Virus record (IMG/VR): IMGVR_UViG_3300012352_000670
From: an uncultured virus (IMG/VR IMGVR_UViG_3300012352_000670)
Lineage: Duplodnaviria > Heunggongvirae > Uroviricota > Caudoviricetes
Length of the DNA stretch: 64,000 nt
Reading direction: 5' to 3' (one strand)
Below, piece by piece: positions 27,291-47,511 of the stretch (position 1 is the first letter of the stretch; every line of letters begins with the position of its first letter). The translations under genes and the position numbers were made by a program. The notes under the pieces are model-generated. The model made no database searches. It was not told the DNA's origin and saw only the letters and a list, made by a program, of their open reading frames with translations.

Positions 27291-27977
27291 TGGCCGAGGA
27301 ATTTGCAGAAGGGGGGTACTATGCTATATTGATCGCTAGGTGCTTTTGGCGGGTGAGACGGCAGTTGCTTGTTTTGGGGCCGCGCGTATTTGTTTCCGGT
27401 CCTGAGGGGGGTCACCCTATGAGGTCATTCGTTGTTTGGTTTCGCGTTTTGGTTTCGCGAAAAACCTTGATAGTCATTCGTCAAAAGGGTCATAACTTCT
27501 AGGGGGTCTTCCCCTAGCAAGGGTCAAAACATTAGGGCTAGGCGAGCAACTTTTGAACAACCTTTTTCCTAGGCAACATTTCATTGGTTGTTAGGTATGC
27601 GAAACTTCGAACGAAAACTCTAGGGGGTCATTCCAAGTTTGCCTAGGGGCTAACAACCTATCAACGAATCCAAACCTAGAGATAGCCAAGCTGCCAAACT
27701 AGGCAAGCCAAGAATAGGCAAGTCAAGAACTTCTGCCAAGGCTTCCAAGCTTTTCACTTCGATCGAAATTGGTCTTGTGAGTTTGTGAAAGTGTCACTAA
27801 ACAAGGCGAGCGCGAACGAAAAAAGTTTGGGGCTTTCCGGGCGAGAGAGAGTCCAGGCGCGGATCGACCAACCAAGAACCTGGCAACGGCAAGCCCAAGC
27901 TTCGAGCAACCTTGACGGCAACGGCAAAAGAAAACCCCCTAGGGGGCTAGGGGGCTTTCGGGTTACCGCTTTGGGGG

Positions 27978-28211
27978 TTAGCGGTAAGTCTTTGCTAGGC
28001 GGTATCCGTATGCCTTTACCGCGAGCGCGATAATCACCGCAACCGCGCTAACGGCAAGAATAATCGGGTAAGCAACTTCACCGAATCGGCTTAGGTCATT
28101 GTCCATTGCCAACGCGTAGTAATCCGCGCCAATAAAAACGGCAACGGCAACCGCAACGAAAACAATCGTGCTTAGTGTGCTTTGTGCTTTCTCAAACTTC
28201 TGAATGTTCAT
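27978..28211 (-). CDS. Two-TM membrane protein (cassette)
   Basis: Own promoter TTGACA/TAAATT, SD and terminator. Confidence 0.7.
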   Translation of the reverse strand: MNIQKFEKAQSTLSTIVFVAVAVAVFIGADYYALAMDNDLSRFGEVAYPIILAVSAVAVIIALAVKAYGYRLAKTYR

Positions 28212-28368
28212 TTCCGTATCCCTTTCGTTTTGCTAGGCGGTATCACCTAACACTTCTAATTTACCAACCTTCAACCATTTGTCAAGGGTTTCCGCAAACA
28301 TTTTTTCGAGCGTGTCGCGGTAAAGAAAAACCCCTAGCCACAATCGGCTAGGGGCTTTCCGTAAGTTG

Positions 28369-28608
28369 TTAGAGAGTGTTTTCGATAATCTCTTCGGCAA
28401 CCATTACGCCGTTTCCGTTTTCATCGTTGTAAGCAAGTCCACGAACAACAACGCGAACCCCTGCGCGAGCGGTTGCGTAAAAGTCCACGATGGCGCGAAA
28501 CTTCTCTTCGCCGTAAGTTTCGTATGCGTAGGTCATTACCTGTCCGTCTTCGAAAGTAACTTCGGCAACGGTGGTGACGATGGTCTTTGTGGTGTCTACT
28601 ACTAGCAT
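28369..28608 (-). CDS. Hypothetical protein (cassette)
   Basis: TTGACA/TATGCT promoter, AAAGGGAAA SD, terminator. Confidence 0.7.
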   Translation of the reverse strand: MLVVDTTKTIVTTVAEVTFEDGQVMTYAYETYGEEKFRAIVDFYATARAGVRVVVRGLAYNDENGNGVMVAEEIIENTL

Positions 28609-28791
28609 TTCATTTCCCTTTCGTTGTATAAACCTTTTGGCTTATGTAATAAGCATACGCCTTTTTTCGTGTTTGTCAAATCAAATCAGAAACTTTTTTC
28701 CTGGCGTGTCGTTTCGATCGAAATTGCCACGAACGAAACGGCAAAAGAAAAACCCCCAACCCTTTCGGGCTAGGGGCTTTCGCTTTCCCTT

Positions 28792-29094
28792 TTACTTTGT
28801 GGTTAGGGTCAGAACATCGGTGAACTTCACCAAGGCTTCATAAGCTTCTGGGTAAGTAGCTTCGAATGAATCCCAATCGTTTACCGAACGGCGAACGCTC
28901 TCAACAACTTCGGCAATCACTTCGCCAGTCTTTGGGTCTGCGATTACGGTTGCGGTGTTGCCAGTCTCACCCAAGACAACCTTGCGAATCGCGCTCTCGC
29001 GGTTTGCCAAGTCTGCCTTTGCCTTCTTCACATCTACCAACTCGGCGATTAGTGAAACTAGGTCTACTACTACGGTCTCGGTCTTTGCGGTCAT
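28792..29094 (-). CDS. Coiled-coil hypothetical protein, paralog of 34542..34838
   Basis: Shares RRSVNDWD.FEATYPEAYEALVKFTDVLTL with the paralog. Confidence 0.75.
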   Translation of the reverse strand: MTAKTETVVVDLVSLIAELVDVKKAKADLANRESAIRKVVLGETGNTATVIADPKTGEVIAEVVESVRRSVNDWDSFEATYPEAYEALVKFTDVLTLTTK

Positions 29095-29422
29095 TTCATT
29101 TCCCTTTCGTTTTTGTATCTAAGCCAACTGGCTTATGGAATAAGCATAAGCGGTATTTTTTGTTTTGTCAAATCGAATCGGCAATTTTTGGTAACAGGTT
29201 GATAACAAGAATTTGGCACTCGCCCCGGCAGACTGCTAACCAACTTCCAACCAAGGCCGCGAGCGCGAGCTGCTTCCGGTCCGGCAAACTTCCAACGAAC
29301 AACCTGGGCAAGCCTGGCGCGAGCTACGAAAAAATTTGATCGATCGACCAAACCAATTTCGATCGAAATACGGCGAGCGCGAAAAACCCCTAGCGTTTCC
29401 ACTAGGGGCTTCGGGCTTCGGA

Positions 29423-29755
29423 TTAGAATCGGTATTCCGAAAAGAACTTCACTTCTTCAAATCGGCAATTGGTAATCGTTTCTTCGTGTGCTTCGCCGTT
29501 GCTCTCGCAATCGTCATTCGCGCATTCTTCACACAACCAAGTAACCAAGACATCGCCATTGAACGAAACCAAATCAAAAGTCACATCAAGAATCTCAATC
29601 GCCTTGCTCTCGCGCCCTGCGGTAATCCAATCTAGGTTGTCCTTTAGCCAAGCGGTGAAAACCTGCTCTGCTTGTTCCTTGCTTCCGCCGATGAACTTCG
29701 CGCCATCAATCTCGCGAGTAGCGAATACAGTTTCGGTCCTGGTGTCTAGTAGCAT
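29423..29755 (-). CDS. Hypothetical protein with CxxC motif (cassette)
   Basis: Start MLLDTR after the long SD. Confidence 0.65.
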   Translation of the reverse strand: MLLDTRTETVFATREIDGAKFIGGSKEQAEQVFTAWLKDNLDWITAGRESKAIEILDVTFDLVSFNGDVLVTWLCEECANDDCESNGEAHEETITNCRFEEVKFFSEYRF

Positions 29756-30064
29756 TTCATTTCCCTTTCGTTTTGCCGTTTGGCTTATGTAATAAGCGTA
29801 GCGCGTATTTGCCAAAAGTCAAGTCAAATCTAGAGAAATTTGGTAACAAATAAATAACGAAAATTCCTAGCTCAAGCTGCGTCAAGCTGCGAACAAACCC
29901 GGCGCGAGCTGCCAACTTTCCACGAACAAGCTGCGAGCTTCCAGGGCTTCCGGCAAAAGAACCAGGGCGGATCGATCGACCATCAGCTTTCTAATTTCGA
30001 TCGAAACCGCGAGCGCGTAAAAAGAAAACCCCCGCTTTCGCGAGGGCTTTCCATTTTCTTCGGG

Positions 30065-30235
30065 CTAGTAGTTTTCGTTCACCCATTCGAGCATTTGCTC
30101 ATAGGTTGCGCCACTTTTGTAAAGTTCCGCCAACTCTTCGTTTTCTGCCAGTAGCCAAACATCTACGGTTGATTCTGCCGACAAGCTCATTAGCAAGTGA
30201 CGAACAGTGTTTGCGGTCTTTGCGTCTAATGCCAT
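30065..30235 (-). CDS. Small hypothetical protein (cassette)
   Basis: MALDAK after the long SD; terminator at 30019. Confidence 0.6.
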   Translation of the reverse strand: MALDAKTANTVRHLLMSLSAESTVDVWLLAENEELAELYKSGATYEQMLEWVNENY

Positions 30236-30347
30236 TTTGTTTCCCTTTCGTTTTTCGGCTTTCTGCCGATAACAAAAGTATGCCATACATCTGCCAAAAA
30301 CACAACAACCGCCACATTGGGCGGTTGCGTGTCGCGAGCGTGTCGCG

Positions 30348-30773
30348 CTAGAACAATTCGTCTTCGTCTTCGGGCTTCGGCTCAAAAGTAATCAAGCCAG
30401 TTCCAACAGGCTCATCGTGAGAGTAGCGAACAACAGTAAGCGTCTTGCCACCATCTGAGAGAGTGAATCGTAAAGTCCAATCGCCATTGATAGACAACTT
30501 CTCAACCATCTCGTCTGGCGTTAGGTAAGCGTATCCGCTCAAGCGTTGCCAAGTCATTCCAGTTCCGCGAGCAACCAACTCGGTGTCTTCGTCATAACCG
30601 TTTGCGCTCATCCAAGGCTTCAGAATCTCAGACTTGAAATTAGCCATCTCGTCTTCGTAGCAACCCCAACAAGAATCGCTAGGCGAATAGGTGTCGGTGT
30701 CTTCATCCCAATCTTCGCAAATACAAGAATTGGTCAATTCGTAGTTTTCGTATTCGGTGATTACAGTTTCCAT
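30348..30773 (-). CDS. Acidic hypothetical protein (CxC..CxxC, SHDEP motif)
   Basis: SD; promoter TTGACT/GATACT. Confidence 0.7.
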   Translation of the reverse strand: METVITEYENYELTNSCICEDWDEDTDTYSPSDSCWGCYEDEMANFKSEILKPWMSANGYDEDTELVARGTGMTWQRLSGYAYLTPDEMVEKLSINGDWTLRFTLSDGGKTLTVVRYSHDEPVGTGLITFEPKPEDEDELF

Positions 30774-31044
30774 TTTCGTTTCCCTTTCATTCGAGCCTTT
30801 CGGCTAATCCAAGTATCCCGCGTTTCGAGAAAAAAGTCAAGCAACTTCCAACGAATGTTGTTCCAGTGTGACGCGCGGATCGACCAGGGGGCAAGCTGCG
30901 AGCTGCGAGCTGCGAGCTGCGAGCTACGATCGATCGATCGACCAGGGTCCGGCCAGGCCAGGGCAAGCTAGGCCAGGGCAGTCTGCGAGCGCCGTTTGAT
31001 CGTGATCCCGCGAGCGCGAGCTTTCCGAATCTAGGCGTGATAAA

Positions 31045-31072
31045 AGGCCAGTTTAGAGACTTAGCCTAGGTC
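31045..31072 (-). ncRNA. Small H-type pseudoknot, copy 1
   Basis: GAC-CU-AGGCUA-A-GUC-UCUAAAC-UGGCCU; covaries with the copy at 37104. Confidence 0.55.
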
Positions 31073-31096
31073 TTTGTTTTCGTAGGGAAACGAAAC

Positions 31097-31468
31097 TTAG
31101 TGAGAGTGTTCCATTGCCTTTAGAACGACTTCCATAATCTTATCAGTTTCTTCACTAGTGAGAGACTCAATCTCGCCATCGTAGTTCTCGCCACCAGTGA
31201 TTAGAATGTTACCAACAATAAAGTCAGTCTTGCCGTATGAGTCTTCCCAAATAGCCGTAGCCAACTCATTTAGCGGAAGGTCTGAAAACTTACCCTCTTC
31301 GTTTAGCCACATTGACAAGCCACGTAGTGAACCTGCCAACGGGACAACCTGAACCCAACCGCCAACGAATGACTGTAAGAACTCAAGTGAAATAATTTCG
31401 TGTGTCTCTTCCCCAAAAATAAATCCGCCGTCTTCATTCGAGCGAATTGCGAATACCTTCGTAGTCAT
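31097..31468 (-). CDS. DUF3846-like protein
   Basis: LEFLQSFVGG.VQ...NEEGK...LP.N..AT...IVGN..I.G. Confidence 0.75.
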   Translation of the reverse strand: MTTKVFAIRSNEDGGFIFGEETHEIISLEFLQSFVGGWVQVVPLAGSLRGLSMWLNEEGKFSDLPLNELATAIWEDSYGKTDFIVGNILITGGENYDGEIESLTSEETDKIMEVVLKAMEHSH

Positions 31469-31539
31469 TTTGTTTCCCTTTCCTTTGCGCTAGCGTTTGC
31501 TAACAGAATCAGTTTACTGCGTTTTGATAAAAAGTCAAA

Positions 31540-31701
31540 TCAATCTCGTGATAACCACAACGAACCTAAAGCTGCGAGCAACAGTAGTCCTGGCGCGATG
31601 GCGTTGTCATACCCAATAGCGAATCCCATAACGAACATAAACCCTAGCCCGATCGAGATACCACGCCAAATAATCGCAAACTCAGAATTGCGCTTTGACA
31701 T
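31540..31701 (-). CDS. Small two-TM membrane protein (53 aa)
   Basis: MSKRNSEFAIIWRGISIGLGFMFVMG...; not in ORF track. Confidence 0.5.
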   Translation of the reverse strand: MSKRNSEFAIIWRGISIGLGFMFVMGFAIGYDNAIAPGLLLLAALGSLWLSRD

Positions 31702-31888
31702 TTTGCCACCACTTCCAAATTGCGGTTAGGGGTTTGCGCTCTTGACGACGGCGACCGTGGCGACCACCTTTGACATAAGACTTGTGCGCGAGTGTCTGCG
31801 TTGTGTGAAAGGTGCGATAAGCGACTGAACCAATCACGCGCCAAAGCTTCTCCATAAAACGGTGATACCTAATCACGATTATTTCCAC
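31682..31888 (-). CDS. Basic hypothetical protein
   Basis: Overlapping, coupled ORF. Confidence 0.45.
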   Translation of the reverse strand: MEIIVIRYHRFMEKLWRVIGSVAYRTFHTTQTLAHKSYVKGGRHGRRRQERKPLTAIWKWWQNVKAQF

Positions 31889-32103
31889 CTCTTGATAGTA
31901 ATGGTGCGACCAACAAACTCAACATCCAAAGCGATACCAGTTTCGTTCACAACTTCAAACTCCATCCCATCAAAGATAGAGAACACATTTGGCTTCGCGT
32001 CAAACTCGGCGAGTGCGCCAAATACTTCGAGCGCGGTCTTGCGTGCGCTCATAAGTTCCTTGCGCCTTTTGTAGCGACTTACGACTTCGAGATTACTGCC
32101 CAT
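31879..32103 (-). CDS. Hypothetical protein
   Basis: GAAAGGG SD. Confidence 0.55.
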   Translation of the reverse strand: MGSNLEVVSRYKRRKELMSARKTALEVFGALAEFDAKPNVFSIFDGMEFEVVNETGIALDVEFVGRTITIKRWK

Positions 32104-32228
32104 TTTTCAGCCCTTTCTGCTTTACATTCGGCACAAATCTGGCGACTTGAATAGTTGCCAATCCAAGGCACTTCAACAGTCTTACCACAATCCCAGCAAC
32201 CAATCCAAATCGTGTCTTGCTTTCCCAT
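32079..32228 (-). CDS. Small Zn-finger protein (CxxC..CxxC)
   Basis: CWDC...CAEC; long SD. Confidence 0.6.
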   Translation of the reverse strand: MGKQDTIWIGCWDCGKTVEVPWIGNYSSRQICAECKAERAEKWAVISKS

Positions 32229-32309
32229 TTCGTTTCCCCTTTCTAGGTATTTCCAGACTAGCCTAGTTTGCTCAAACAAGCAACAAACAAACTTCGGCGT
32301 GTTGCGTGT

Positions 32310-32453
32310 CTACTTGAACATCCGCAATTGTTGTGCGAACCAATCGTCAAAATCTCCATCGCAATCTTCACACAACGGATGGACTTGCCCAACGAACGCT
32401 TCGATCTCGGCTTCGCATTTGTAGCAAGTTGTAGTCTCTTTGGTTTCCATCAT
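32310..32453 (-). CDS. Small Zn-finger protein (CxxC..CxxC)
   Basis: CYKC...CEDC; own promoter. Confidence 0.6.
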   Translation of the reverse strand: MMETKETTTCYKCEAEIEAFVGQVHPLCEDCDGDFDDWFAQQLRMFK

Positions 32454-32731
32454 TTCCCTTTCTTTGGATACCAACAGGTTACCCCATAACAGAAACAAAA
32501 GCAAGCAACTTCAAACGAATACCGCGAGCGCGTTTCGATCCTGGCAAGCTCCGGTCCGGCCAGGGTGCAGCTCTGATCGATCAGCGAGCGCGGCCGTAGT
32601 TCACCGGACAAAAGAAAAACGGTAGCAAGGGGGGACTTGCTACCGCTTTCTTTGCGGAAGGTGAAAGGGGGATAACTCCTTCCGCGTTATCACTTAGGCG
32701 AGTAATCTCAAGCCCAAGCAACTCTTACAGT

Positions 32732-33079
32732 CTACACGCTCTCTGACATTTTCGCAAACTCGGTGAAAGTTTCACCCTTGTAGCGATAGACACCAGTGTC
32801 GGCATTGACATAGACAGTTGGGTTGTTCACCCAACCAACGACTTCAGGGTCATCTCCATAGTTGTCAATCCCGAATGAAAGCTCGCCATCGTAGTTTCCT
32901 AGGGTTGCGAACTCGTAGAAAATCTGCGCGGTGAGGTAGCTCGCGTCACCGATACGGTCACTACGACCTAAGACATTGCGAACGGCAAGAATGTTGTCTT
33001 CTCCCGACCAGTGCCCATAAAAGGTAATCGGCGTCTTGAAACCCTCGGCTTCGACTTGAATGTATGCGCGGTCACCCAT
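32732..33079 (-). CDS. Hypothetical protein (MGDRA..YGHWSG type)
   Basis: TAATG coupling; N-terminus similar in pattern to 35053..35577. Confidence 0.65.
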   Translation of the reverse strand: MGDRAYIQVEAEGFKTPITFYGHWSGEDNILAVRNVLGRSDRIGDASYLTAQIFYEFATLGNYDGELSFGIDNYGDDPEVVGWVNNPTVYVNADTGVYRYKGETFTEFAKMSESV

Positions 33080-33288
33080 TATGCCACCGCCACCCATTTG
33101 ACAGCGGTGCGTAGCAAGTTGTCATAATCGCCACTCGTGCTCTCCTCGTAGTATTCGTCAATCTCAGACTGAGGAACGCCTGCGCTCTTTAGCGCGCTTG
33201 CTACACGACCCATAATCGCGAAAGCATTTCCATCTTCCCCGACCAACTGAACTTGAACATCTGGATACTTCGGCTCTCCGAAACTCAT
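33079..33288 (-). CDS. Small conserved phage/mobile-element protein (GEDGNAF..MG.V motif)
   Basis: LVGEDGNAFAIMGRV..AL..AG...SGDYD.LL. Confidence 0.7.
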   Translation of the reverse strand: MSFGEPKYPDVQVQLVGEDGNAFAIMGRVASALKSAGVPQSEIDEYYEESTSGDYDNLLRTAVKWVAVA

Positions 33289-33444
33289 TTTCTTTCCCTA
33301 CTTTCCTAGGCAATCTGCCTAATACAAAGATAATACATTTTGCTTGTTAGCGCAACTTCAAACGAATACTAATTTCGTGTCTTCTGATCGATCAACCAAG
33401 GCGACTAGCTTCGATCCGCGAGCGCGGCCGTAGCCGAGCTCCCC

Positions 33445-33852
33445 CTAGTCTTCGTCTTCTTCGTCTTCGTCTTCGTCTTCGTCTTCGTAGTCATTACAAA
33501 CACCAGCGCAACCGCTCTCACCGCAATCTTCGCAATCGTCTTCTTCGAACTGCCCAATCAAAGTTTCGAATCCTTCGTTAGCGTCCACACCTTCTGGCAT
33601 AGTAGAGACCGCGCTCACAAAACGTAGACCACAGCTTTCTTCATACCAGTGCTTGACTTTCTCCAACATCTTGTCCGCGCTCATTGCGTATTTGGTGATG
33701 AGACCTTCTGTATCAGTTCCATCCCCATAGCCATACTCGCGCATAAGCGAGACTTGCTCATCGTCCATAAGCACGTAAATCTTGTGGCAAGTGTCCCAAG
33801 CAATCGCCTTGGCGTCTACCAATCGTTCTTCAACCAAATCAAAGTTTGTCAT
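33445..33852 (-). CDS. Acidic hypothetical protein with poly-ED tail
   Basis: WDTCHKIY...SCGLRF; SD and promoter present. Confidence 0.7.
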   Translation of the reverse strand: MTNFDLVEERLVDAKAIAWDTCHKIYVLMDDEQVSLMREYGYGDGTDTEGLITKYAMSADKMLEKVKHWYEESCGLRFVSAVSTMPEGVDANEGFETLIGQFEEDDCEDCGESGCAGVCNDYEDEDEDEDEEDED

Positions 33853-34541
33853 TTCGTTTCCCTTTCGTTTAGGCGTTTTCGCCTAACTAAAAGATACCGC
33901 ATTTCGGGACAATACGCAACATCCAACGAACATTTTTTTCGTGTCTTGATCGATCGACCAGCTCCCGGGTCATCTAACTTCCAACGAATTAGTTGCAGCT
34001 TGTTAGATCTGGATCGCCGGTAACCACCTGGCTAGATCTCCCTGGTCCGGCCCTGGTGATCAGATCAATCTCAGCTGCGAGATCTCCGGGGATCAGCTGC
34101 GCAACTTCGGACAAAAAGAAAACCCCCTTTCGGGGGCTTCTTNNNNNNNNNNNNNNNNNNNNNNNNNNNNNNNNNNNNNNNNNNNNNNNNNNNNNNNNNN
34201 NNNNNNNNNNNNNNNNNNNNNNNNNNNNNCATCTTGCACCCCCTATCTCCCTTTCTACTTCCAAAACTACCACCCAACCCAAAACTTGTCAAGTGTTTTT
34301 TGATAACGAATCTGTAACACTCTCGAGCTGCCTCGAGCTGCCTCGAGCTGCGCCAGCTCCGGTGAAACTTCCAACGAGCTGCCACTAAGCTGCAACGCCA
34401 GCTGCCGCGATTCGCTTCATAACTTCTAACGAACCATCAACGATCACGATCAAACCAGGGCGACCGGTAATCGGATCGACCAGCGACCAGAGAAAGAAAA
34501 ACCCCCCAGTCTTTCGACTGAGGGGCTTGTCTGCCTCGAGA

Positions 34542-34838
34542 TTACTTCTTGACAGTGTTGAGGGTCAGGACATCAGTAAACTTCACTAGTGCCTCGTATG
34601 CCTCTGGATAGGTTGCCTCGAACTCGTCCCAGTCATTGACTGAACGGCGAGTGCTCTCGACTACCTCGGCGATAATCACGCCAGCCTCGTCAGCAATCGA
34701 AACAGCAGTGTTGCCAGTCGCTCCAAGAACCGACTTGCGGATAACGCTCTCACGAGCAGATAGTTCAGCCTTTGCTTCACGAACTGAAACCAGTTCGTCA
34801 ATCAGGGCTACAACATCAACGACAACAGCCTTAGCCAT
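34542..34838 (-). CDS. Coiled-coil hypothetical protein, paralog of 28792..29094
   Basis: High visible identity to 28792..29094. Confidence 0.75.
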   Translation of the reverse strand: MAKAVVVDVVALIDELVSVREAKAELSARESVIRKSVLGATGNTAVSIADEAGVIIAEVVESTRRSVNDWDEFEATYPEAYEALVKFTDVLTLNTVKK

Positions 34839-35052
34839 TTTCGTCCTTTCCCTAGAAATCAAGCCAACCTTGTGTTCGCTTGTAATACCAAGCCTAGTCT
34901 GCTAAGTTTCGCAAGTCAAGCCCAGAGGGCACTTTTTTGTCACAAAATGGTAACGAATTTTTTAGCTGATCAATCAGCTGCAACCGGTGATCGCCAGGAT
35001 CTCGGGCAAAAGAAAACCCCCACATTTCTGCGGGGGCAATCTTTTGTGGCGA

Positions 35053-35990: not shown

Positions 35991-36198
35991 TTTTCCCTAC
36001 TTTCCGTAGCAACTTGCTACAAAATAAAAATACCATCAACTGATAAAAAAAGCAACAACCAACGAAGAAAAACTTTTCACCAGCTTGAGATCCCTCGAGA
36101 TCTTCCGGCCCTGGTGATCGATCTAAGCTGCAGCTCTTTCGCCGGACAAAGAGAAAACGCCCACCCCGAAGGGTGAGCGTTCGCTCTCGAAACTCTAC

Positions 36199-36545: not shown

Positions 36546-36749
36546 CTAATCTTTTGCTAGGGGAACGGTGTTCAGGATTTCGAGAGCTTCTGAGTAAAGC
36601 TCCATCTCGGAATCTTCCGACCACTCGCAAGACTCGGTGTCCCAGACTTGCTCGCTCTTATCAAACCGCGCGGTGAAAACATCATCATCGATGAACGGCT
36701 CGCGCGTATCAAGATCAACGCCCACCACGAAGTAAACCTGCTTGCCCAT
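36546..36749 (-). CDS. Acidic small protein downstream of the HicA-like gene (possible antitoxin)
   Basis: Abuts the HicA-like stop; GAGG SD. Confidence 0.5.
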   Translation of the reverse strand: MGKQVYFVVGVDLDTREPFIDDDVFTARFDKSEQVWDTESCEWSEDSEMELYSEALEILNTVPLAKD

Positions 36750-36956
36750 TTATTTCCTCTCGATTGTGATTCCGTGTCGGCGAAGTTCCGACACCAAGTT
36801 TTTGACGGCACGCCCGTCTGACGGAGTGGACGCGGAGAAAACTATCTGCCCACTTGGCGAAGTCCACTTCAAGTGTCCCCCACCAGTTAGAGTTACGACC
36901 CAGCCCTTAGACTCGGCGACCTTGACTATCTGCTTGAATTCTTTTCTGTTCGACAT
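36750..36956 (-). CDS. HicA-like dsRBD-fold toxin/mRNA interferase
   Basis: AESKGWVV..TGGGHLKW..P.G..V....TPSD.RA..N....LRR.G; leaderless. Confidence 0.7.
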   Translation of the reverse strand: MSNRKEFKQIVKVAESKGWVVTLTGGGHLKWTSPSGQIVFSASTPSDGRAVKNLVSELRRHGITIERK

Positions 36957-37103
36957 ACTTCAAATGTAGCACTACCCACTGACATTTTCAACGACACGCC
37001 AGAAACTTTTTGAAAGCTTTTGATCTGATCCTGATCCTGCACTGCAGCTCCGGCACCTGATCTCCCAGACCACCCTGCCCTGGACCAACCAGAAAAGAGT
37101 GGC

Positions 37104-37130
37104 GAGCAGTTTTACAACTTGCTCAGGTTG
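37104..37130 (-). ncRNA. Small H-type pseudoknot, copy 2
   Basis: CAAC-CU-GAGCA-A-GUUG-UAAAAC-UGCUC. Confidence 0.55.
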
Positions 37131-37145
37131 GGTGTGGCTTCGAAC

Positions 37146-37535
37146 CTAAACGAGTTCTTCCTCGGGTTCAGGTTCGCGAACCAAGACGGTGCGAGTGTAG
37201 ACCGAAGTTCCCCAAGTCAAATCGTGGCCCATTGCTGACGCTTCGATTTCCACCGAAGTTCCCGAACGCTCTCCATTGTCCCAGTCGCGAACGCGAAGTG
37301 TGCCAGTGACGGTGATACGGTCGCCCTTGTTGATAGAGGTAGAGACATTGAAAGCAAGTTTATTGAACGAGGTGACAGTGAACCAGTTCGTCTCGCCGTC
37401 CACCCACTTGCTCTCCACGCGGTCAAACTTGCGGTAAGAACTCGCGAGACGGAATGAAGTAATCGGCAAGCCGTCCGCCGTAATGATGTGGCGAGGTGTG
37501 GTGGCAACGAGGCCAGTGACAGATACAGTTTCCAT
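37146..37535 (-). CDS. ssb: Single-stranded DNA-binding protein (actinobacterial type)
   Basis: VTGLVATTP...FRLAS...WVDGETNWFTV...KGDR..V.G.LR.RDW...EIEA...GHDL.WG. Confidence 0.9.
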   Translation of the reverse strand: METVSVTGLVATTPRHIITADGLPITSFRLASSYRKFDRVESKWVDGETNWFTVTSFNKLAFNVSTSINKGDRITVTGTLRVRDWDNGERSGTSVEIEASAMGHDLTWGTSVYTRTVLVREPEPEEELV

Positions 37536-37772
37536 TAGTTTCCCTTTGATAGTTTCCCCTGTGAACTTTTGTCCACCCTTGTATTGTAGCATAACTCGCG
37601 ATGACATTCAACTTGCCACGAATCTTTTGCTTCGTGAGAAGTTCCTACGGTAGCCCCCAGCTTGATGATTGATCAGCTTGATCACAAACCCATTGATCCG
37701 GTTCAGCTGCACTTCCACCCAAACAAGAAACCCCCGCCCGAAGGCGAGGGTTCTTGCTTTTTAGGGAAACGA

Positions 37773-38246
37773 CTACCAACTGGATTGGTATTCGAAATCG
37801 TAATCCTTCAGACTTTCCGAAGTCAAAAGGTGGTTCAGCATTTCAGCAGTTTGCTTCAGGCTGTCGTAGTACCACTCATCAAGGTCAGTTCCACCGAAGA
37901 AGAACCCACTCTGTGGTGGCAACAACTCATCAGCCTTGGTGGCATCAGCCAATACAGCCTGGCACGCCTCCAGAAGTTCAGCCAGTTGCTCACGAGATAC
38001 CCAAGCCTTCTGGCACTCATCACGACCACCCTGAACATTCTGAACGAACCAGTTGTGAATGGCGTTCGCCTTACGCCAGTAACCAACGCTGATTTCGATT
38101 GTGGCACTTGGGTTGCCATACTCCAAGTCTGCCTTGGTCAAGCCACTAGCAGATAGAACTTCAGCGTACGCCTGCTTCTCTGGCTCTTTGTTGAAATCGT
38201 AGCCACTCACGTACTTGCGAGCAGATAGATACATATCTAGTCCCAT
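37773..38246 (-). CDS. Conserved phage protein (MGLDMY..YWRKANAIHNWF..GFFFG..YQSSW)
   Basis: Motif set typical of a widespread phage hypothetical family. Confidence 0.75.
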   Translation of the reverse strand: MGLDMYLSARKYVSGYDFNKEPEKQAYAEVLSASGLTKADLEYGNPSATIEISVGYWRKANAIHNWFVQNVQGGRDECQKAWVSREQLAELLEACQAVLADATKADELLPPQSGFFFGGTDLDEWYYDSLKQTAEMLNHLLTSESLKDYDFEYQSSW

Positions 38247-38323
38247 TGGAACTCCCTCTTTCCCTACGCCCTACTCTTTTTCAGGCACGCCACCAGTTTA
38301 CACTAAGTCAGCGAAAATACAAA

Positions 38324-38626
38324 CTATTTAGCGAAAGTTTTTTGGCCTAGATCGACCAACAATTCTTCGACAGTGTCAGGGATCTGATATCCACCAACCA
38401 GAATCCCGGCTCGGATCACTAGTTCTCCGGTGGTCAAGGAAAGAGCTGCGGCCCAAGACGATACAACTTCGGAAGAAGCTTCTTTCTGTCCACGCTCCAA
38501 TTCGCTCAGGTACCCGAGTGCCATGTTCGCACGAGTAGAAACCTGGCGTAGGGTTAGCTTCTGATCGATCCGTTCCTCGCGTGCAACGTGTCCGAGGGCT
38601 TCGCGGTATAGCAATTCACTAGTCAT
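38324..38626 (-). CDS. ClgR-like XRE HTH transcriptional regulator
   Basis: REALG...R..R....TLRQVS..A..ALGYLSELERGQKEASSE closely matches actinobacterial ClgR; leaderless. Confidence 0.8.
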   Translation of the reverse strand: MTSELLYREALGHVAREERIDQKLTLRQVSTRANMALGYLSELERGQKEASSEVVSSWAAALSLTTGELVIRAGILVGGYQIPDTVEELLVDLGQKTFAK

Positions 38627-38712
38627 ACGATCAGCGTAGTGCACGCACGCCAATCCGTCAAACAAAAAACACCAGCAGCTCTCTCGCCACTGGTGTTCTC
38701 TGTCCGTTTTGG

Positions 38713-39570
38713 TTAGGCAACCTCGGTCAAGGTCGGATAGACACGCACTCCGTCTTCCTCCACCCACGCCACGCTGTCTTCACTAATCAGCACGCCGTTC
38801 GGTTGCTCGGCGTTGGTAAAGTTTTCCAGCACGCCGTTCGCAATCTCCCACGCCGATTCAGCCGACTTCGCCGTAATCCGAATGACTTGCCGAACCACAA
38901 CCTCGAACTCCTTTTCAGGGCGAGGGCAATCCGCATACCAATACTCGTCGTCGTCAGGGTCGCTCTGGCAGTTGCACGACTCTTCCCTGTCCCTGTCCAC
39001 ATAGTCTTGGTGGCTGTCGGGGATGTCCCATTCCTTGGTCATAATCAAAGAACGCTCGCCATCCTCGTCGCCGTCCGAAGAAGTGAACTCCGCACCCCAG
39101 CCCTGTTCTTCCTCACTCCAGAACTCAAAGTCCAGCGTTGGGAACTTACGAACAATCGCATTGAAGACTGGCTCAGGGATACTCCACGCCGTATTGAACG
39201 AGTAGCCCAGCGAGGTTTCGCTGTCGTCATTCAAGTCCACATCACAAGCGTCCCACTTAGTTCCCCACTCACGAATGTTCCAGTCATACCAGCCATTCGA
39301 CGAGAACTTCATAGAGTGAGCCATACGCTCTTCCATAGTCCACGAATCGTAGCCCTCTGGCTTGTAGTCGCTTGCCCCAAAGTAGAGTGCCTTGTCTTCT
39401 GGCTCAATGAAGTTCCAGAATGAAAAGACCTCCTCCTTGTCTTCGTAGGTCAGCAACCCAGTTTCGCTATCGAATCCAGTTGGTGCTTTTCGCCCTGCCA
39501 GTTCCTTGAACTCAGCAATCGTTTCTTTTGAACCTGAAACGCTCAGGGTGTTGTAAACCCAGTTTGGCAT
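38713..39570 (-). CDS. DUF1281/YubB ferredoxin-like domain protein
   Basis: MPNWVYN.L..; WYDWN...WGTKWD; F.TAWS.P. Confidence 0.8.
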   Translation of the reverse strand: MPNWVYNTLSVSGSKETIAEFKELAGRKAPTGFDSETGLLTYEDKEEVFSFWNFIEPEDKALYFGASDYKPEGYDSWTMEERMAHSMKFSSNGWYDWNIREWGTKWDACDVDLNDDSETSLGYSFNTAWSIPEPVFNAIVRKFPTLDFEFWSEEEQGWGAEFTSSDGDEDGERSLIMTKEWDIPDSHQDYVDRDREESCNCQSDPDDDEYWYADCPRPEKEFEVVVRQVIRITAKSAESAWEIANGVLENFTNAEQPNGVLISEDSVAWVEEDGVRVYPTLTEVA

Positions 39571-39571
39571 T

Positions 39572-39859
39572 TTAGTTCTCCTCTCCAGTTAGGTTGTGTT
39601 CCTCAATCAAAGTGTCAATGGTCATACCAGCGTAAATCTTGGTGGTTTCCAAGTAAGTGAGCAAGCCCTCGCTACCAAACTTCTTTCCAAGTTCAGTCGC
39701 AAGTTCCAGCAAGCGATACATCCTTGGGTCAGCGTATCCCTCTTGGCAGTAATCCTCAACGAAGACAGCAATGGCAGTAAGAGCAATGCCAGCAATGTCT
39801 TTGTCGTCCAACTCCATTTCAGCGAAGTTTGGAATGTTGTTTCCACAGTTGTCGCACAT
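39572..39859 (-). CDS. Hypothetical protein
   Basis: MCDNCG after SD. Confidence 0.6.
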   Translation of the reverse strand: MCDNCGNNIPNFAEMELDDKDIAGIALTAIAVFVEDYCQEGYADPRMYRLLELATELGKKFGSEGLLTYLETTKIYAGMTIDTLIEEHNLTGEEN

Positions 39860-40368
39860 TTCGTTTCCCTTCTTTTGGCAACAAGTAAATCGTAGCATAC
39901 ATCAGCGACATTTCAAATAGGTTCGTTCGAAGTTTTGGCATTTCGTAGAGCTGCTTTTGCCAGGTCCGGTGCAGCTTATGATCGATCAGCAAAAGCTCCT
40001 ACATGCGTATGACGATCCGACTGAAGATCTGAGATCCCGAGATCATCGGCCCAAGCTTCACCCGGGCATGAGATCTAAAGCTGCTGAACTTCTAACGATC
40101 ACCAACGGCCGCGCATTCTGGTACCGGATATCTTTCCCGGGTACGATTCGAGATCCTCTAGCGCGTCCGTCTTCGTGGGTAGTTCCACCCGGGTGATCGA
40201 TCAGCAGCTTTTCTCGCGCACGCCAGCACGCCACCGTTAGTCCGGGCAAAACGAAATCCCTACCAGTGGGGGCTGATAGGGATTCCTAATCCGTTAGCGG
40301 AGAGCGATTATTGGAAAGGGGGAAACGAGTTTGCTCGATCCGCTAATGGACTTCTTTGGCACGCCGAC

Positions 40369-42159
40369 TTACACGCCACCCCCGATTTTCGCGAGAGCGT
40401 CAGACGCAGACTTGCCGATTTCCAGCGCGATACTTTCGACAGCCATTCCGTTTAGGTGAACCGCGTGAGTTCCGCGCGTGATGTCTTGCGCGCCAGTTCC
40501 GTAGCAATCCTTTGGAGTGATGAACAGAACAGCCACGCCAGCCTGTTCACATTCCTTGACAATCCGTTTCGCGTTTTCGGTTTCTTTCGGAGTGTAGTTT
40601 CCGTCCGATACAACAACCAACAAACGCACGCCGTCCGAATAGGTCAGACCAAGCGCGCCATTGAGAGCCGAGAACCCCTTGTCAAAAACTTCCGTTCCGT
40701 CTGGCGCAGACCAGACCGAAACTTCTTCCAACTTCTGCCCGACCTTGAGTGTCGCGAACACATCTTCACCGAAGTAGACCATAGCGGTTTTCGCCTGAAC
40801 CCTACGACCAGCCTCACTTAGCACCCAAGCAGTTGTCGCCATAGCGTCCATAGCCGAACCCATAGAACCAGAAATGTCCACCATTACGCCAATGGTCAGC
40901 GTTGGGTCGTCAGTGTGTTTGCGCGACTTCGACTTCCAAGCAGGGAGTTCGCCACGCAATCCCATTGACTTCATAGCACTATTCTGAACAGCGTTGCGAG
41001 TGTTGAGTTTGCCAAGTGGCGCGTGAGTTTTGCGAGTGTGAACTGAACGCTCACGATACTTCGCCTTGTCCAGCATTTCAGCAATCTTGACAGCACTCGC
41101 ACGCTCACCAGATTTTGGCGCACGCTTTTCGCGAAGTGATGAACGCGACTTCGTTCCAGTAGAACCCTCTTCGCGCTTGTCGAAAATCACCTCTGCCACC
41201 TTGCGCTCTTCGCTCTTCTTCTTGCTCTGGCTTGCGCGACCCTTTGCCTCTTCTGCCCACTCTTCGTCAGTCTGTTGGTCAGACAAGTCAATCGAAACAG
41301 CAATCGCAGTTTCGCCAGCGTCCTCTTCCAAGTCGCCCTTGCTTGCGAGAACGAAAGCCATTCCAGCACCCTCGCCACTCTCGCCCTCTGGGTCAGCCTC
41401 GCGTAGCAAGTCCACCCACTCGCGAGCCAAGTCAAGACCAGCGATAGTCGCGCCATTTGGAAGAGCGTGGAAACGCACCCAAACAGAACGCAACTTCTCA
41501 AACAACTCGCTACCAAGAACCTCAAGCGCGCGCTCGTAAATCTTCTGAACATCTGCCAGACCAAGAACGCCAGCGTCCACGCGAGCGAGAGCAAGTCCAG
41601 CCATTTGAGCAAGCACGCGAACCTCGCTCAACTTTGACAACGCCTCTTCGTCAATCTCGCCAAGAGCAAGACCAAGAGCAGACGCACGCAGGAAAAGCCT
41701 GTTCTTTGGATAGGTCAGAACGCCAATGCGCTCAATGCGAGATTCCTCAAGCAACCAGAAAGCGTCAAGAACATTTTGGTTGCCCTTGTGATGTTCGCTT
41801 TCGAAGAGCGAGTAATCCCACTTGTCAGACGAACGCGCGTGAAGAGCCTCGTGATAAATCACGCCAGTTGGTTCTGCCCAATCGTATTGAGTTTCGCGAA
41901 GTGTGAAGTCGCCAACCATTTCTGGCTTAGTTGCTTTCCCAAAAGCACCAGCCAAGTTGATTTCGATTTCGGCAGTAGAGCCAATGAAACAAGCAATCGC
42001 TTGACCCATACCAGCGTCCTCACCAGCATAGACAGCCAAGTCATTACGACCAGCCCAATCGTTTGCGACCTTACCAATCTGGGCGCAAGTCGCCAACCAT
42101 TCAGACGGAGTTGAGCCAGCGCGAGTTGCGAGGCGCGAGTTAGGTGTGAAGTGTGTCAT
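40369..42159 (-). CDS. vWA domain protein with N-terminal HExxH (CobT-like partner of MoxR AAA+)
   Basis: YHEALH, LEESRIE, MIDAS DISGSM, VVSDG. Confidence 0.85.
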   Translation of the reverse strand: MTHFTPNSRLATRAGSTPSEWLATCAQIGKVANDWAGRNDLAVYAGEDAGMGQAIACFIGSTAEIEINLAGAFGKATKPEMVGDFTLRETQYDWAEPTGVIYHEALHARSSDKWDYSLFESEHHKGNQNVLDAFWLLEESRIERIGVLTYPKNRLFLRASALGLALGEIDEEALSKLSEVRVLAQMAGLALARVDAGVLGLADVQKIYERALEVLGSELFEKLRSVWVRFHALPNGATIAGLDLAREWVDLLREADPEGESGEGAGMAFVLASKGDLEEDAGETAIAVSIDLSDQQTDEEWAEEAKGRASQSKKKSEERKVAEVIFDKREEGSTGTKSRSSLREKRAPKSGERASAVKIAEMLDKAKYRERSVHTRKTHAPLGKLNTRNAVQNSAMKSMGLRGELPAWKSKSRKHTDDPTLTIGVMVDISGSMGSAMDAMATTAWVLSEAGRRVQAKTAMVYFGEDVFATLKVGQKLEEVSVWSAPDGTEVFDKGFSALNGALGLTYSDGVRLLVVVSDGNYTPKETENAKRIVKECEQAGVAVLFITPKDCYGTGAQDITRGTHAVHLNGMAVESIALEIGKSASDALAKIGGGV

Positions 42160-42450
42160 TTCCAGTCCTTTCCAAAACTGATTACCTATTCAGGATAGCG
42201 CACTTTTGCGCTTTGGCGCAACTCAATCCAAGAAAAGATTTTGTTCGATTTCGATCCCTAGTCCGGCGCAGCTTTGGCCCAAGCTTTTGGGTGATTAAAT
42301 CCTGGGCCATCCACCCGGGTGATCGATCAGTGGTCAAGCTTTTGATTTCTTCGTTGGAAGTAATGCGTACGATCCCTAGAGCTGCCTCTCCACCAAAAAG
42401 CAAAAGTGCCAGATTTCTCTGGCACTTCGCTTTTCAGTTTCGGACGGAAA

Positions 42451-43467
42451 CTAAATCTTGGCAGGGCGACATTCCTCACCGAACACGCGAGTGAAAACAT
42501 CTGCCACGACAGGGCGGTCAAGTTCTGGCGCACTCGCAAGCAAGTTGGAGATTGCGAACTTAGTTCCAAACACTTCGCTGATTGACTTGTATGCCAACAG
42601 TTCACGCATTTGTGGCGACCACGAAGTTTCACCATTCGCTTGCTTTTTCGCAAGGTTCTGGGCAACCGAAACAGCAGACGCAGGAACGCCCAACTTTTTC
42701 GCAAGCGACCAGTCAGTCGTCATTTCTGCCTGAATGGAGAAACGAGAGAGCAACGCCTCGCTTAGGCGAACTCCGGGCGCATTGGGATTTGTCGCGCCAA
42801 TCACATAAAAGCCGTCCTTGGCTTTCACAGTTCCGCGCTCTGGGTTCGCGGTGATTACGATTTCCTTGCGTCCGTCCATAAGACCATAGACAGCCGAAAG
42901 AACCTTTGGGTCAATCAGACCAATCTCGTCAATCAACAGAACTTTGCCCTCTTCGGCAGACTTGACCAAAACGCCGTCCACCCATTCGAATGAGCCACTT
43001 GGAGTTTGGACATAGCCACCAATGAAGTCAGAAAGTTCGGTGTCGCCAGAACCAAGGATTGTGTAAAGTTCGTCTGGGAACGCGCCCTCAACGAGAGCAG
43101 TTTTGCCAGTTCCGGGCGCACCATACAAAAGGACATACTGGTTGTTTGCGCGTGCTTTGCGAAGAACCTCAACATCTGAATGTTCTCCCCAAGTGCGAGA
43201 GAAGTAGAAGTCGCCATTCGGACGCTGATACTTCTCCGCACCCTCAATCGTTTCTACGCTCACAGTTGCCTTTGCCTTTGGTTTTGGAGTTCCAGTTCCA
43301 ATCTTAGCGCGAAGATTAGCGCGTCCACTTTTCGGCATTAGCGAAGTAAGACCAGCAGGAACTTTGGTTTCGTCCTCACCCTGAACAGCAACGCCGAAAA
43401 TCAGCGAGGTGAGTTCTGGGTAGATTGCGTCCACGATTTCTTCGTAGGTGTTTGTTGTAGTAGTCAT
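42451..43467 (-). CDS. MoxR-type AAA+ ATPase (CbbQ/NirQ/CobS-like)
   Basis: GAPGTGKT, LLIDEI, ATNP, LSEALLSRF. Confidence 0.9.
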   Translation of the reverse strand: MTTTTNTYEEIVDAIYPELTSLIFGVAVQGEDETKVPAGLTSLMPKSGRANLRAKIGTGTPKPKAKATVSVETIEGAEKYQRPNGDFYFSRTWGEHSDVEVLRKARANNQYVLLYGAPGTGKTALVEGAFPDELYTILGSGDTELSDFIGGYVQTPSGSFEWVDGVLVKSAEEGKVLLIDEIGLIDPKVLSAVYGLMDGRKEIVITANPERGTVKAKDGFYVIGATNPNAPGVRLSEALLSRFSIQAEMTTDWSLAKKLGVPASAVSVAQNLAKKQANGETSWSPQMRELLAYKSISEVFGTKFAISNLLASAPELDRPVVADVFTRVFGEECRPAKI

Positions 43468-43494
43468 TTCAGTTTTCCGTCCTTTTCGATTTCC

Positions 43495-44001
43495 CTAGTA
43501 AAGGTTTTCTGGGTAGCCAACTTCGGCGCGCGCTTTGGTGATTCGGCGCAACGCAGACGCAGGTGCTTTCCAAGTGCTGATGTCAGTGAAATCAACATCA
43601 GTTAGTTCGAACACGATTGGTCGTGGTCGTGGCGTAAATCCCTCTGGGAACATACGCGCAGTGATTTCGCTCGCACGCGAACCAAGTTCGACAGCCTTAT
43701 CAACAGGCGACATAGCGTCAAACTCTTTAGGGGTTCGAACGAAGTTAGTGCGCCATTGAGCGCGAGGTGAGAACTCGCTAATGGTGCGATAGATAACAGC
43801 CATACTTACGACTTCGCCCTTTTCGTTCTTACCACTTGGGGTAATCAGAACTTGGGTGGTTCGTGGGTATGAGTTGGTTGCGTGTGCCTCAAGGTAAATG
43901 CCCATTCCCATTAGGCGAGGCTTGGTGCTTACCTCTTCGTGAGAAGTGGCAAGTGCGTCAGCAATCTCGGAAGAAACTTCTCCGAATGTTGTTGGGTTCA
44001 C
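43495..44001 (-). CDS. Hypothetical protein
   Basis: GGAAAGG SD with GTG start; first gene of the AAA+ cassette. Confidence 0.65.
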   Translation of the reverse strand: MNPTTFGEVSSEIADALATSHEEVSTKPRLMGMGIYLEAHATNSYPRTTQVLITPSGKNEKGEVVSMAVIYRTISEFSPRAQWRTNFVRTPKEFDAMSPVDKAVELGSRASEITARMFPEGFTPRPRPIVFELTDVDFTDISTWKAPASALRRITKARAEVGYPENLY

Positions 44002-44130
44002 TTTCGTGCCTTTCCAGTAGTTGAGTGTCGTTTTCCCGACAAGACCAACTTTACACGAAGTCGCGACAAAAGCGCAACTCTTCCAACAAAGATTTTTTAT
44101 TTAGTTTTTCCCGGGCTGATCGATCAGCAG

Positions 44131-47493: not shown

Positions 47494-47511
47494 GAGTGAA
47501 TTATATCTCAT

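Follow-up and report, generated by a model that had tools for sequence, protein, structure and literature searches.

Palindrome-free gene units alternating with site-rich gaps in a presumed early region of an uncultured freshwater phage

A minus-strand gene array from which short palindromes have been almost entirely removed lies at 27700..44130 of the 64,000-nucleotide stretch analysed here, hereafter the window, which belongs to an uncultured virus of the Caudoviricetes (IMG/VR record IMGVR_UViG_3300012352_000670). It is made up of about 20 units, each with a sigma-A-type promoter, a strong Shine-Dalgarno (SD) sequence (GAAAGGGAAA), at least one small open reading frame (ORF) and an intrinsic terminator, and it is transcribed from 44.1 kb towards 27.7 kb. 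On the coding strand of the array, where promoters and terminators were read from the sequence, the promoters are all sigma-70-like. The array presumably consists of early genes that serve host takeover and anti-defence. Promoter, SD and terminator sequences recur around the small ORFs as cassette-type repeats (families D1–D17), and cassettes have been gained or lost between relatives as whole-segment insertions and deletions (indels) at the gaps between units, for instance in the 34-kb region and at 39.9–40.3 kb. The array opens with a conserved pair of genes, encoding an AAA (MoxR/CobS-like) and a vWA (CobT-like) protein. The AAA_5 ATPase (42451..43467, minus strand; 338 aa; PF07728, E 5e-21) carries 2 palindromic sites against 31.8 expected, and the 596-aa vWA protein (40369..42159, minus strand), recognized by a VWA_CoxE match that is weak and misses the Pfam cut-off (E 0.0013), has a gene with 0 sites against 46.1 expected. 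The first unit is formed by gene 1 (43495..44001, minus strand), which encodes a 168-aa protein without family match and has 1 site against 14.6 expected; its promoter marks the onset of the purge, which in relatives likewise begins about 1 kb upstream of the AAA gene. The upper boundary, at 44,130, is sharp, and the gene just upstream (44131..44421, minus strand) shows an ordinary palindrome density. Further inside lie genes for a single-stranded DNA-binding protein (SSB; 37146..37607, minus strand; PF00436, E 3e-17) and a DUF3846 protein (31097..31468, minus strand; PF12957, E 8e-16), while most early proteins of the array belong to no known family.

The extent of the purge was gauged on 27 minus-strand coding sequences (CDS; 11,025 nt), curated by SD-guided calls and compared with 300 synonymous-codon shuffles. 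One of the two runs of N in the window (34143-34229, 87 bases; the other is 54327-54393, 67 bases) lies in the array, within a stretch of gap and small ORF, and was excluded from every count. A reading made from the sequence alone had reported that the vWA gene lacks GATC, AGCT, CCGG, GGCC, CATG, TGCA and GTAC while tolerating CGCG, GCGC and TCGA. This is correct and even understated, as CTAG, ACGT, AATT, TTAA, TATA and ATAT are absent too, so that 13 of the 16 palindromic 4-mers stand at 0, alongside 27 CGCG, 22 GCGC and 6 TCGA. Across all 27 CDS, 84 copies of the 13 avoided palindromes were counted where the shuffles give 339±14 (301 in the lowest), whereas CGCG, GCGC and TCGA together stay at expectation (196 observed, 193.5 expected). 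When the 26 CDS other than a helix-turn-helix (HTH) gene described below are ranked, the 12 lowest observed/expected ratios among the 256 4-mers all belong to palindromes; in this set GATC occurs twice against 25.8 expected and AGCT 8 times against 37. Depletion extends to the 5-mers CCWGG (2 against 11.2), GCWGC (0 against 7) and GCSGC (0 against 11.4), to the interrupted palindromes CGWCG, AAWTT, GGWCC, TAWTA and TTWAA, and to most 6-mers built on the tolerated cores, five of which (AGCGCT, GTCGAC, TGCGCA, GGCGCC and CCGCGG) are absent where 13.2 copies would be expected in sum. The codon shuffles and the palindrome-only ranking rule out that composition or codon bias is the cause. The depletion is also regional. 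In per-kb counts ACGT, ATAT, CATG, GTAC, TATA, TTAA and TGCA are near zero from 28 to 44 kb and ordinary elsewhere, and the late genes carry all 16 palindromes at ordinary density, in line with the earlier view that structural genes use them freely. The window holds one such purged region, of about 16 kb, and the related genome G002 likewise one, homologous to it, at 46-64 kb of 136 kb.

The purge follows the expression unit and not the reading frame. To separate what belongs to a unit from what lies between units, each gap was divided by a fixed, approximate trim into edges (its first 45 nt and last 80 nt, hence promoter, leader and terminator) and a core (the remainder), gaps of at most 160 nt being scored entirely as edges and three ambiguous intervals being omitted from the split in G002. 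At the edges, nine palindromes other than those enriched in gaps occur 7 times against 75.3 expected (14 against 74.1 in G002), whereas in the cores the same nine are relaxed, at 42 against 66.5 (37 against 45.6 in G002), with AATT, GGCC, TGCA and GTAC at chance level. It is because edges are purged and cores relaxed that the partition can be said to track the unit. The exception within the array is an unpurged island (38146..38680, minus strand) with 33 palindromic sites, which takes in a leaderless HTH gene of the Xre type, runs on into the first ~100 nt of the gene that follows and is found in G002 as well. This HTH gene (HTH_3) starts at an ATG at 38626 and stops at 38324; it has its own promoter and no SD, the ATG being preceded by TTGACG, 17 nt, TACGCT and 6 nt. 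Scored as 38324-38767, it is the sole CDS of the 27 that is not depleted, with 27 palindromes against 19.7 expected from codon shuffles. It is a gene of a different expression class that escapes the purge in the middle of the array. Edges, cores and island fit the proposal that units are protected, not the whole molecule; the rarity of ACGT, CATG and TTAA in the cores does not.

The gaps behave differently from the units they separate. Measured against dinucleotide shuffles over 5,390 nt of spacer, GATC (71 against 16.5), AGCT (58 against 23.6), CCGG (33 against 21.9), CTAG (27 against 11.3) and TCGA (51 against 25.9) are enriched, and ACGT (0 against 14), TTAA (1 against 30) and CATG (2 against 11) stay poor. 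Both the depletion in genes and the enrichment in spacers asserted in the sequence-only reading therefore hold against codon- and dinucleotide-corrected nulls (84 against 339±14 and, for spacer GATC, 71 against 16.5), and the site clusters coincide with the spacers it had listed along the array. Its description of these spacers as packed with palindromic sites applies to a few site types (GATC, AGCT, CCGG, CTAG and TCGA) but not to palindromes generally, the summed density of the 13 palindromes being 44/kb in spacers and 45/kb in the rest of the window. Within the cores, GATC (58 against 13), AGCT (50 against 11.4), CCGG (30 against 12) and TCGA (34 against 15) are 2.3-4.5x over-represented and sit in fast-changing simple-repeat blocks; GATC and AGCT rank first and second in enrichment among the 136 4-mer classes, and GATC is similarly raised in the G002 cores (40 against 9.6). 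These site counts are not independent, because gaps are partly paralogous and tandem-repeated and their words are oriented and recurrent.

Individual gaps share a common order. Read on the coding strand, the terminator end consists of a hairpin and T run followed by a block of CGCGCTCGC, TTTCGATCGAAA, GGTCGATCGATC, CCWGG, GCCGGA and GCAGCTC words, and the promoter end often of TTCGTTGGAAGTTGC, then a TTGACN -35 element, 16-18 nt, a TANNNT -10 element, the SD and the start codon. The blocks, for which no strand is given, begin at the upstream boundary of the array with 44102..44130 (CTGCTGATCGATCAGCCCGGG). The block between the AAA and vWA units (42253..42386) holds 16 sites of the types GATC (x4), AGCT (x4), CCGG, GGCC, CTAG and GTAC, and the counts given earlier for 42250-42385 (GATC 4, AGCT 4, CCGG 2, GGCC 2, CTAG 2, GTAC 1) could be reproduced; among four relatives it has undergone indels and replacement of stretches. 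The largest block (39949..40343) has 33 sites and resembles a multiple cloning site, with CCCGGG, GATATC, GGTACC, CGGCCG, AGATCT and AAGCTT; in one 250-column stretch of the alignment with G002 it shows 35% identity and 122 gap columns, and a different insert is present in the relative L006. The block at 36082..36150 contains AGCTGCAGCT, GATCGATCA, CCAGG, GCCGGA, AGATCT and CTCGAG, and two blocks around a small ORF and the N run (33948..34480) contain (CTCGAGCTGC)x3 and GATC x12. Next come 32530..32610, with TGATCGATCA, AGCTGC, CCTGG and CCGGACCGGA, and 30870..31025, with the tandem repeats (AGCTGCG)x5.1, (CGAT)x3.8 and (GGCCA)x6.2, whose copy numbers differ even in the 95%-identical genome G001. 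A paralogous pair follows at 29870..30010 and 29215..29385, the latter (family D10) showing the order CGCGCTCGC, TTTCGATCGAAA, GGTCGATCGATC, CCWGG, GCCGGA, AGCTCGC, and the last block of the array is a site cluster at 27760..27900. Perfect palindromes recur across gaps, TGATCGATCA 6 times and TTTCGATCGAAA 3-4 times, and TTCGTTGGAAGTTG abuts the -35 element in 8-9 gaps. All 14 copies of GATCGATC in the window lie inside the array, with 0 in the other 46.5 kb, and of the 12 in G002, 11 are within the purged region and one is about 1 kb upstream. The tandem doublets AGCTAGCT and CTAGCTAG were looked for in the array and neither occurs. Elsewhere, AGCTAGCT is the only frequent palindromic doublet outside the arrays of the window and G002, with 7 copies in window positions 1-27000 and 44500-64000, 9 in G002 outside 45-64.5 kb and 0 in either array.

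Comparison with relatives indicates that the purge is still being enforced. The units-and-gaps pattern is present in four close relatives. For the window and G002 (13% diverged), the 1,361 CDS differences across 10,235 aligned positions were re-placed randomly at the same codon position and base. In the two directions of change, only 4 and 11 new GATC, AGCT and CCGG sites have arisen in CDS against 53.7 and 56.1 expected, with 0 of 300 shuffles as low, and new avoided sites overall number 52 and 30 against 225 and 221, whereas the tolerated CGCG, GCGC and TCGA are gained at the null rate (49 against 55 and 73 against 62.5). As new avoided sites fall so far below expectation, the purge reflects current, lineage-specific selection. 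The avoided set itself differs between the two lineages: AATT is gained freely in the G002 lineage (26 against 26.6 expected) but not in the window lineage (3 against 23.5), and the same holds for CTAG (13 against 14.3, compared with 5 against 13.7). The G002 lineage has ceased to avoid AATT and CTAG, and the avoided set shifts quickly between lineages. G002 keeps the contrast between CDS and spacers for GATC (6 and 51), AGCT (6 and 43) and CCGG (5 and 39). Its gaps and those of the window have diverged faster than the genes and are rich in indels. Positions shared with G002 amount to 36 of the 71 GATC gap sites and 41-57% of gap sites overall, compared with a fraction of 0.507 for any gap 4-mer. 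Gap sites turn over, lost ones being replaced by new.

A search of IMG/VR with the AAA protein placed the region in a wider family. The best 80 of 195 related stretches were taken, three with less than 4 kb downstream were dropped, and the remaining 77 loci were sorted by thresholds that we set ourselves. The same region is purged in 35 of them: in 26 the purge is full, starting about 1 kb before the AAA gene on its upstream side and covering the gaps too, and in nine (L019-L024, L033, L043 and L044) genes are purged and gaps site-rich; the other 42 show little or no purge. Tolerated sets are lineage-specific, being CATG/CTAG/GCGC/TCGA in L025, CGCG/GCGC/CTAG/TCGA/TATA in L028, CTAG/TTAA/TATA/AATT in L036 and CTAG/TATA in L080. 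The gaps of fully purged relatives have the same architecture and lengths, with a conserved AT-rich 16-mer replacing the site blocks. This word stands between terminator and promoter in nearly every gap (GTATTTATTTTTTCTG in L025 and L028, AGTTTTCATTTTTTCTAAT in L080), and it may be a phage-specific promoter or regulatory element. A quick maximum-likelihood tree of 61 AAA rows, from which 19 near-duplicates or short loci had been removed and for which SH-aLRT was the sole support measure, maps the site-rich-gap state as two changes, one in the window clade and one in L033 plus L043, each nested among fully purged lineages. Site-rich gaps thus appear to have arisen twice, although a single origin is compatible with the strongly supported branches. 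In the second clade the same three cores are enriched but set in different words (AGATCT, CGAGCT and CCGGCCGG, the last occurring 3 times in L033 and 2 times in L043). The partition into units and gaps is missing from the closest named relatives, DSL-LC01 and A3Wally. DSL-LC01 has a peculiarity of its own, as its whole 129,469 bp contain 0 ATAT and 0 TTAA with other palindromes ordinary, an avoidance that is genome-wide and not regional.

The window derives from a large tailed phage with a T4-type large terminase (TerL; 19921-21324). Other Pfam matches among the window proteins are a weak one to a portal protein (E 0.0026, below the cut-off) and ones to glycosyltransferases and a carbamoyltransferase. 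Its nearest named relative is the metagenome-assembled Actinomycetia phage DSL-LC01 (74% amino acid identity in TerL, 42% in vWA), followed by Microbacterium phages of about 190 kb and Gordonia phages of about 115 kb; vWA homologues adjoin the AAA gene in DSL-LC01 and in Microbacterium and Gordonia phages. Megablast of two window stretches against 50,697 phage records found no close DNA match, and among IMG/VR relatives G001 is 95-96% identical and G002 and G003 about 80-90%. G002 (136,298 bp, assembled as a circle with a 127-bp overlap) encodes two WhiB proteins, ThyX, RNR, PolA and many 2OG oxygenases, and its WhiB genes point to a host among Actinobacteria. Judged from sequence, the window phage is large and lytic and infects freshwater Actinobacteria. 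Ten or more 2OG-Fe(II) oxygenase paralogues are encoded next to collagen-repeat proteins and glycosyltransferases (in G002, and at 46-49 kb in the window) and may modify collagen-like fibres. Because 20 of the 24 public freshwater runs listed (13 studies) contain part of the stretch, nine of them at least half its words, the sequence is natural and widespread, and an origin as artefact or synthetic DNA is ruled out by these runs together with the recurrence of the pattern in five related contigs. Within the array, weak or domain-only matches include an 'Api92-like ferredoxin' domain (DUF1281_C) in the protein at 38713-39570 (minus strand) and a HicA-like match below the cut-off in that at 36750-36956 (minus strand), and two paralogues of ~100 aa (28792-29094 and 34542-34838, minus strand; repeat family D3) match the C-terminal part of a RecE-like PHROG. 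Outside it, in the virion gene block, a 757-aa protein (8946-11219, minus strand) combines ArdC-N and zincin-like metallopeptidase domains (E 4e-47 and 3e-48) and may be an injected anti-restriction protein.

A terminal repeat had been named at the outset as a condition under which the design would be cheap. In the Microbacterium phage A3Wally (L017/L018) the first 6,000 nt are identical to 179,222-185,221 of its record, which implies a direct terminal repeat of 15,503 bp, 6,000 nt of which were checked. The repeat contains about 40 small genes, including an endolysin gene, between the vWA and TerL genes and is syntenic with the array, and when tested for palindrome depletion it showed none. 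At the distal end of the array lies a non-coding stretch of about 550 bp (27150..27700, no strand given) with repeated CCCCTAG-type words and 13 CTAG per kb, a candidate terminus, origin or stop signal. The contigs of two runs break inside it, at 27.2-27.4 kb, and read depth steps up near 27.3 kb (from 39.5 to 80-96 in X6 and from 6.1 to 9.35 in X1), the higher depth continuing past 44.1 kb; these depths are per-contig, mixed-strain and unreliable. Contig ends 8.5-10 kb upstream of the AAA gene (6 of 80 loci) were considered as a terminus and rejected, since the other end distances are evenly spread. A Pfam scan of 149 proteins, namely 56 window entries (23 + 33) and 93 of the 140 G002 ORFs of at least 90 aa, the other 47 being 22 early-region, 19 structural and 6 border-crossing ORFs, matched no DNA methyltransferase family. 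Phage-encoded methylation as the reason why late genes can keep their sites was set aside on the strength of this result.

A depletion that is palindrome-specific, proof against the composition controls, confined to one region of about 16 kb and maintained is what pressure from restriction enzymes on early DNA would be expected to leave, and restriction stealth of early DNA is, on this sequence evidence, well supported as the cause of the purge. The purge would be the footprint of diverse Type II restriction enzymes on DNA that is expressed before phage countermeasures exist, the principle of the T5 first-step-transfer (FST) region and the T7 leading region carried to an extreme. That the avoided words would match host enzymes gains indirect support from the lineage-specific tolerated sets. 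Selection in the window clade would act to keep each expression unit intact, not the molecule unbroken, because the same words leave the units yet multiply in the gaps, because promoters and terminators are purged too, and because a non-cassette gene escapes. After a cut in a gap all units would stay expressible, and the cut could later be resealed, or the region restored from a second copy if it is terminally redundant; sites would therefore be tolerated in gaps, where indels are harmless. There they would multiply by slippage or by duplication through cutting, fill-in and rejoining, the expected fill-in products being GATCGATC in the window clade and CCGGCCGG in the second. No benefit from the gap sites, such as a decoy effect, would be needed. 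Of the combined account, in which Type II restriction purges the units and sites are tolerated and multiply in gaps because cuts there are survivable, we would say that it is the explanation we favour, while conceding that it stands a little short of an even chance. The idea of an anti-restriction design thus keeps its core, a palindrome-specific, regional and maintained depletion; site-rich spacers are not a necessary part of it, as 26 of 77 loci purge their gaps.

A stronger version can be formulated, in which the gaps are sacrificial break points: first-entering DNA would be cut only between self-contained units, anti-defence proteins would still be delivered, the leading copy would be resealed or replaced from a long terminal repeat, and cycles of cutting, filling and rejoining would write GATCGATC and CCGGCCGG. 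This we hold to be doubtful; if true, the genome would be built to survive restriction by dictating where it can be cut, an architecture apparently evolved twice in the family. Several observations weigh against survivable cuts in general. In 26 of 77 related loci the gaps are as clean as the genes, hence gap sites are apparently selected against in most of the family, and why they should be harmless in two clades is left unexplained by the favoured account. ACGT, CATG, TTAA, ATAT and TATA are still depleted in the gap cores. The gap words are oriented (GCAGCT 27 against AGCTGC 7, GCCGGA 10 against 1, GCGCTCGC 10 against 0), and about 9-10 of the 21 gaps contain a TGATCGATCA-like word; such oriented, recurrent words could mean protein-binding elements or common descent. 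A fill-in duplication signature exists for GATC and CCGG only, not for AGCT or CTAG, and fill-in scars as a general source of gap sites were dropped for this reason, the only tandem duplicates being GATCGATC and CCGGCCGG. Finally, T5 is sensitive when its first-entering DNA carries sites (PMC10644984). A reading of the oriented words as Chi-like or topoisomerase sites was also considered and dropped.

The alternative that survives best takes the gap blocks as cis-acting protein-binding arrays, bound by a regulator of the early promoters or by an occluding protein that is co-injected or supplied by the host, so that palindromes are kept for their function and shielded from enzymes. The partition would then mark the places proper to binding sites, and would say nothing of where a cut does no harm. 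It is an unlikely explanation in our estimation, though one to be taken seriously. The blocks always lie just upstream of promoters, TGATCGATCA and TTTCGATCGAAA recur as perfect palindromes (with the TGATCGATCA-like word in about 9-10 of 21 gaps and TTCGTTGGAAGTTG in 8-9), GATCGATC is confined to the array in two genomes, fully purged relatives have a different conserved 16-mer in the same place, an Xre-type HTH gene lies inside the array, and the 757-aa protein of the virion block has an ArdC-N domain. The fixed orientation of flanking words fits as well, but common descent of the gaps would produce the same. It is harder to see why one protein should require so many kinds of site (AGATCT, TGATCA, AAGCTT, CAGCTG, CCCGGG, CCWGG and GCWGC), why the distance from block to promoter should vary, as we read the sequences, and why copy numbers should differ among 95%-identical genomes. 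The sites are no better conserved than the surrounding gap and fall into several word families, which departs from the single motif of an operator or stoperator; the second clade builds the same three cores into different words, AGATCT, CGAGCT and CCGGCCGG; and the chance-level AATT, GGCC, TGCA and GTAC of the cores are left unexplained.

That gap sites are selected as decoys or sponges for restriction enzymes, or as methyltransferase landing pads, and so raise survival on restricting hosts, was one of the first suggestions made for them. GATC and AGCT are the most enriched words in gap cores and among the most depleted in genes, site density is kept in a diverged lineage despite about 50% positional turnover, and both of the separate clades with site-rich gaps enrich the same three cores. 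However, with the units already cleared a decoy would have nothing to guard, some 60 additional sites are too few to draw enzymes off the more than 100 kb of later DNA that is not purged, and by the general kinetics of restriction-modification (R-M) extra unmodified sites reduce the odds of methylation beating cleavage. Most of the family does without such blocks, and with no DNA methyltransferase family among the 149 proteins scanned the suggestion found no evidence; we regard it as improbable. More improbable still is self-immunity, in which early phage nucleases would cut short palindromes in host DNA while only the early region is inside the cell, so that the units must lack these sites themselves. 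Davison made an analogous proposal for T5 A1 (bioRxiv 10.1101/866236), most early proteins of the array have no known family, and SNase-like and PD-(D/E)XK nucleases are encoded outside it. On the other side, more than 13 4-mers and several 5-mers are avoided, which is too many specificities for a few nucleases; the tolerated sets vary among close lineages (AATT relaxed in G002 only; L025, L028, L036, L080), as changing host repertoires would have it; no nuclease family was matched in the array proteins; and the site-rich gaps are left unexplained. A neutral relic, in which selection on GATC, AGCT and CCGG has lapsed and fast gaps have regained sites that slow genes still lack, can draw on the faster evolution of gaps and on a probably fully purged ancestor, the nearest other lineages being fully purged, but is hardly credible, being refuted by the gain test (4 and 11 new CDS sites against about 54-56, with tolerated palindromes at the null rate) and by gap cores that lie 2.3-4.5x above chance and not merely at chance.

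The layout of the array has parallels in known phages. The host-takeover module of the Bacillus phage SPO1 and the PeSL cassettes of T4-type phages consist of many small early genes with their own promoter, SD and terminator, whose repeated regulatory sequences may promote cassette shuffling; neither is known to show a palindrome partition. For restriction of early DNA a close precedent is T5, which, like BF23, is restricted only via sites in its FST region (PMC10644984). Survival of restriction by the favoured account would resemble this case in that an early-gene block has to function while the remaining genome is still at risk, and in that the T5 block contains non-coding stretches rich in repeats and palindromes (bioRxiv 10.1101/866236). 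T5 also has a long terminal repeat, as does the relative A3Wally (15.5 kb), and the 550-bp non-coding repeat stretch at the array end (27150-27700) resembles the T5 injection-stop layout, a resemblance only. The differences are substantial. Nearly all 4-bp palindromes are purged over 16 kb here, compared with a few host sites in T5; the repeat and palindrome stretches are spread among ~20 units, hypervariable and dominated by GATC, AGCT and CCGG, whereas those of T5 are conserved; and no homology to T5 genes was seen. In Murciavirus (Autographiviridae), only motifs in the leading region matter for restriction, and the position of a motif, not the total, decides escape, in a variable region with anti-defence genes that would be comparable to the array; this case concerns single Type I motifs, and its abstract describes neither a wholesale purge nor site-rich intergenic blocks (PMC12455610). 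The leading regions of conjugative plasmids are likewise first-entering DNA with anti-defence genes and SSB, a possible analogy to the array with its SSB and DUF3846 protein, but their palindromes of 4-8 bp were reported as 'not consistently depleted', unlike the extreme depletion found here (PMC13478746). No description of palindrome-free units alternating with site-rich gaps, or of a family-wide regional purge, was found in the literature, supplements being outside the scope of the search, though one may exist all the same. For early or leading DNA, site avoidance as such is already known; the extreme regional purge and the partition appear to be new.

Site avoidance is usually gauged per genome and per motif, and here a sharply bounded, near-total purge of 12-17 kb is found across an abundant family of freshwater phages. 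It offers a simple sequence signature for early and anti-defence regions in uncultured phage genomes, and the lineage-specific tolerated sets make the region a readable record of the restriction specificities faced. The combination of purged units and site-rich, untranscribed gaps suggests that selection acts on the gene unit and not on the continuity of the DNA. The removal of the same words from units while they multiply in gaps shows that where a cut falls with respect to gene units can itself be under selection, and these phages provide a concrete, testable case of whether every restriction break in the early DNA of a phage is necessarily fatal.

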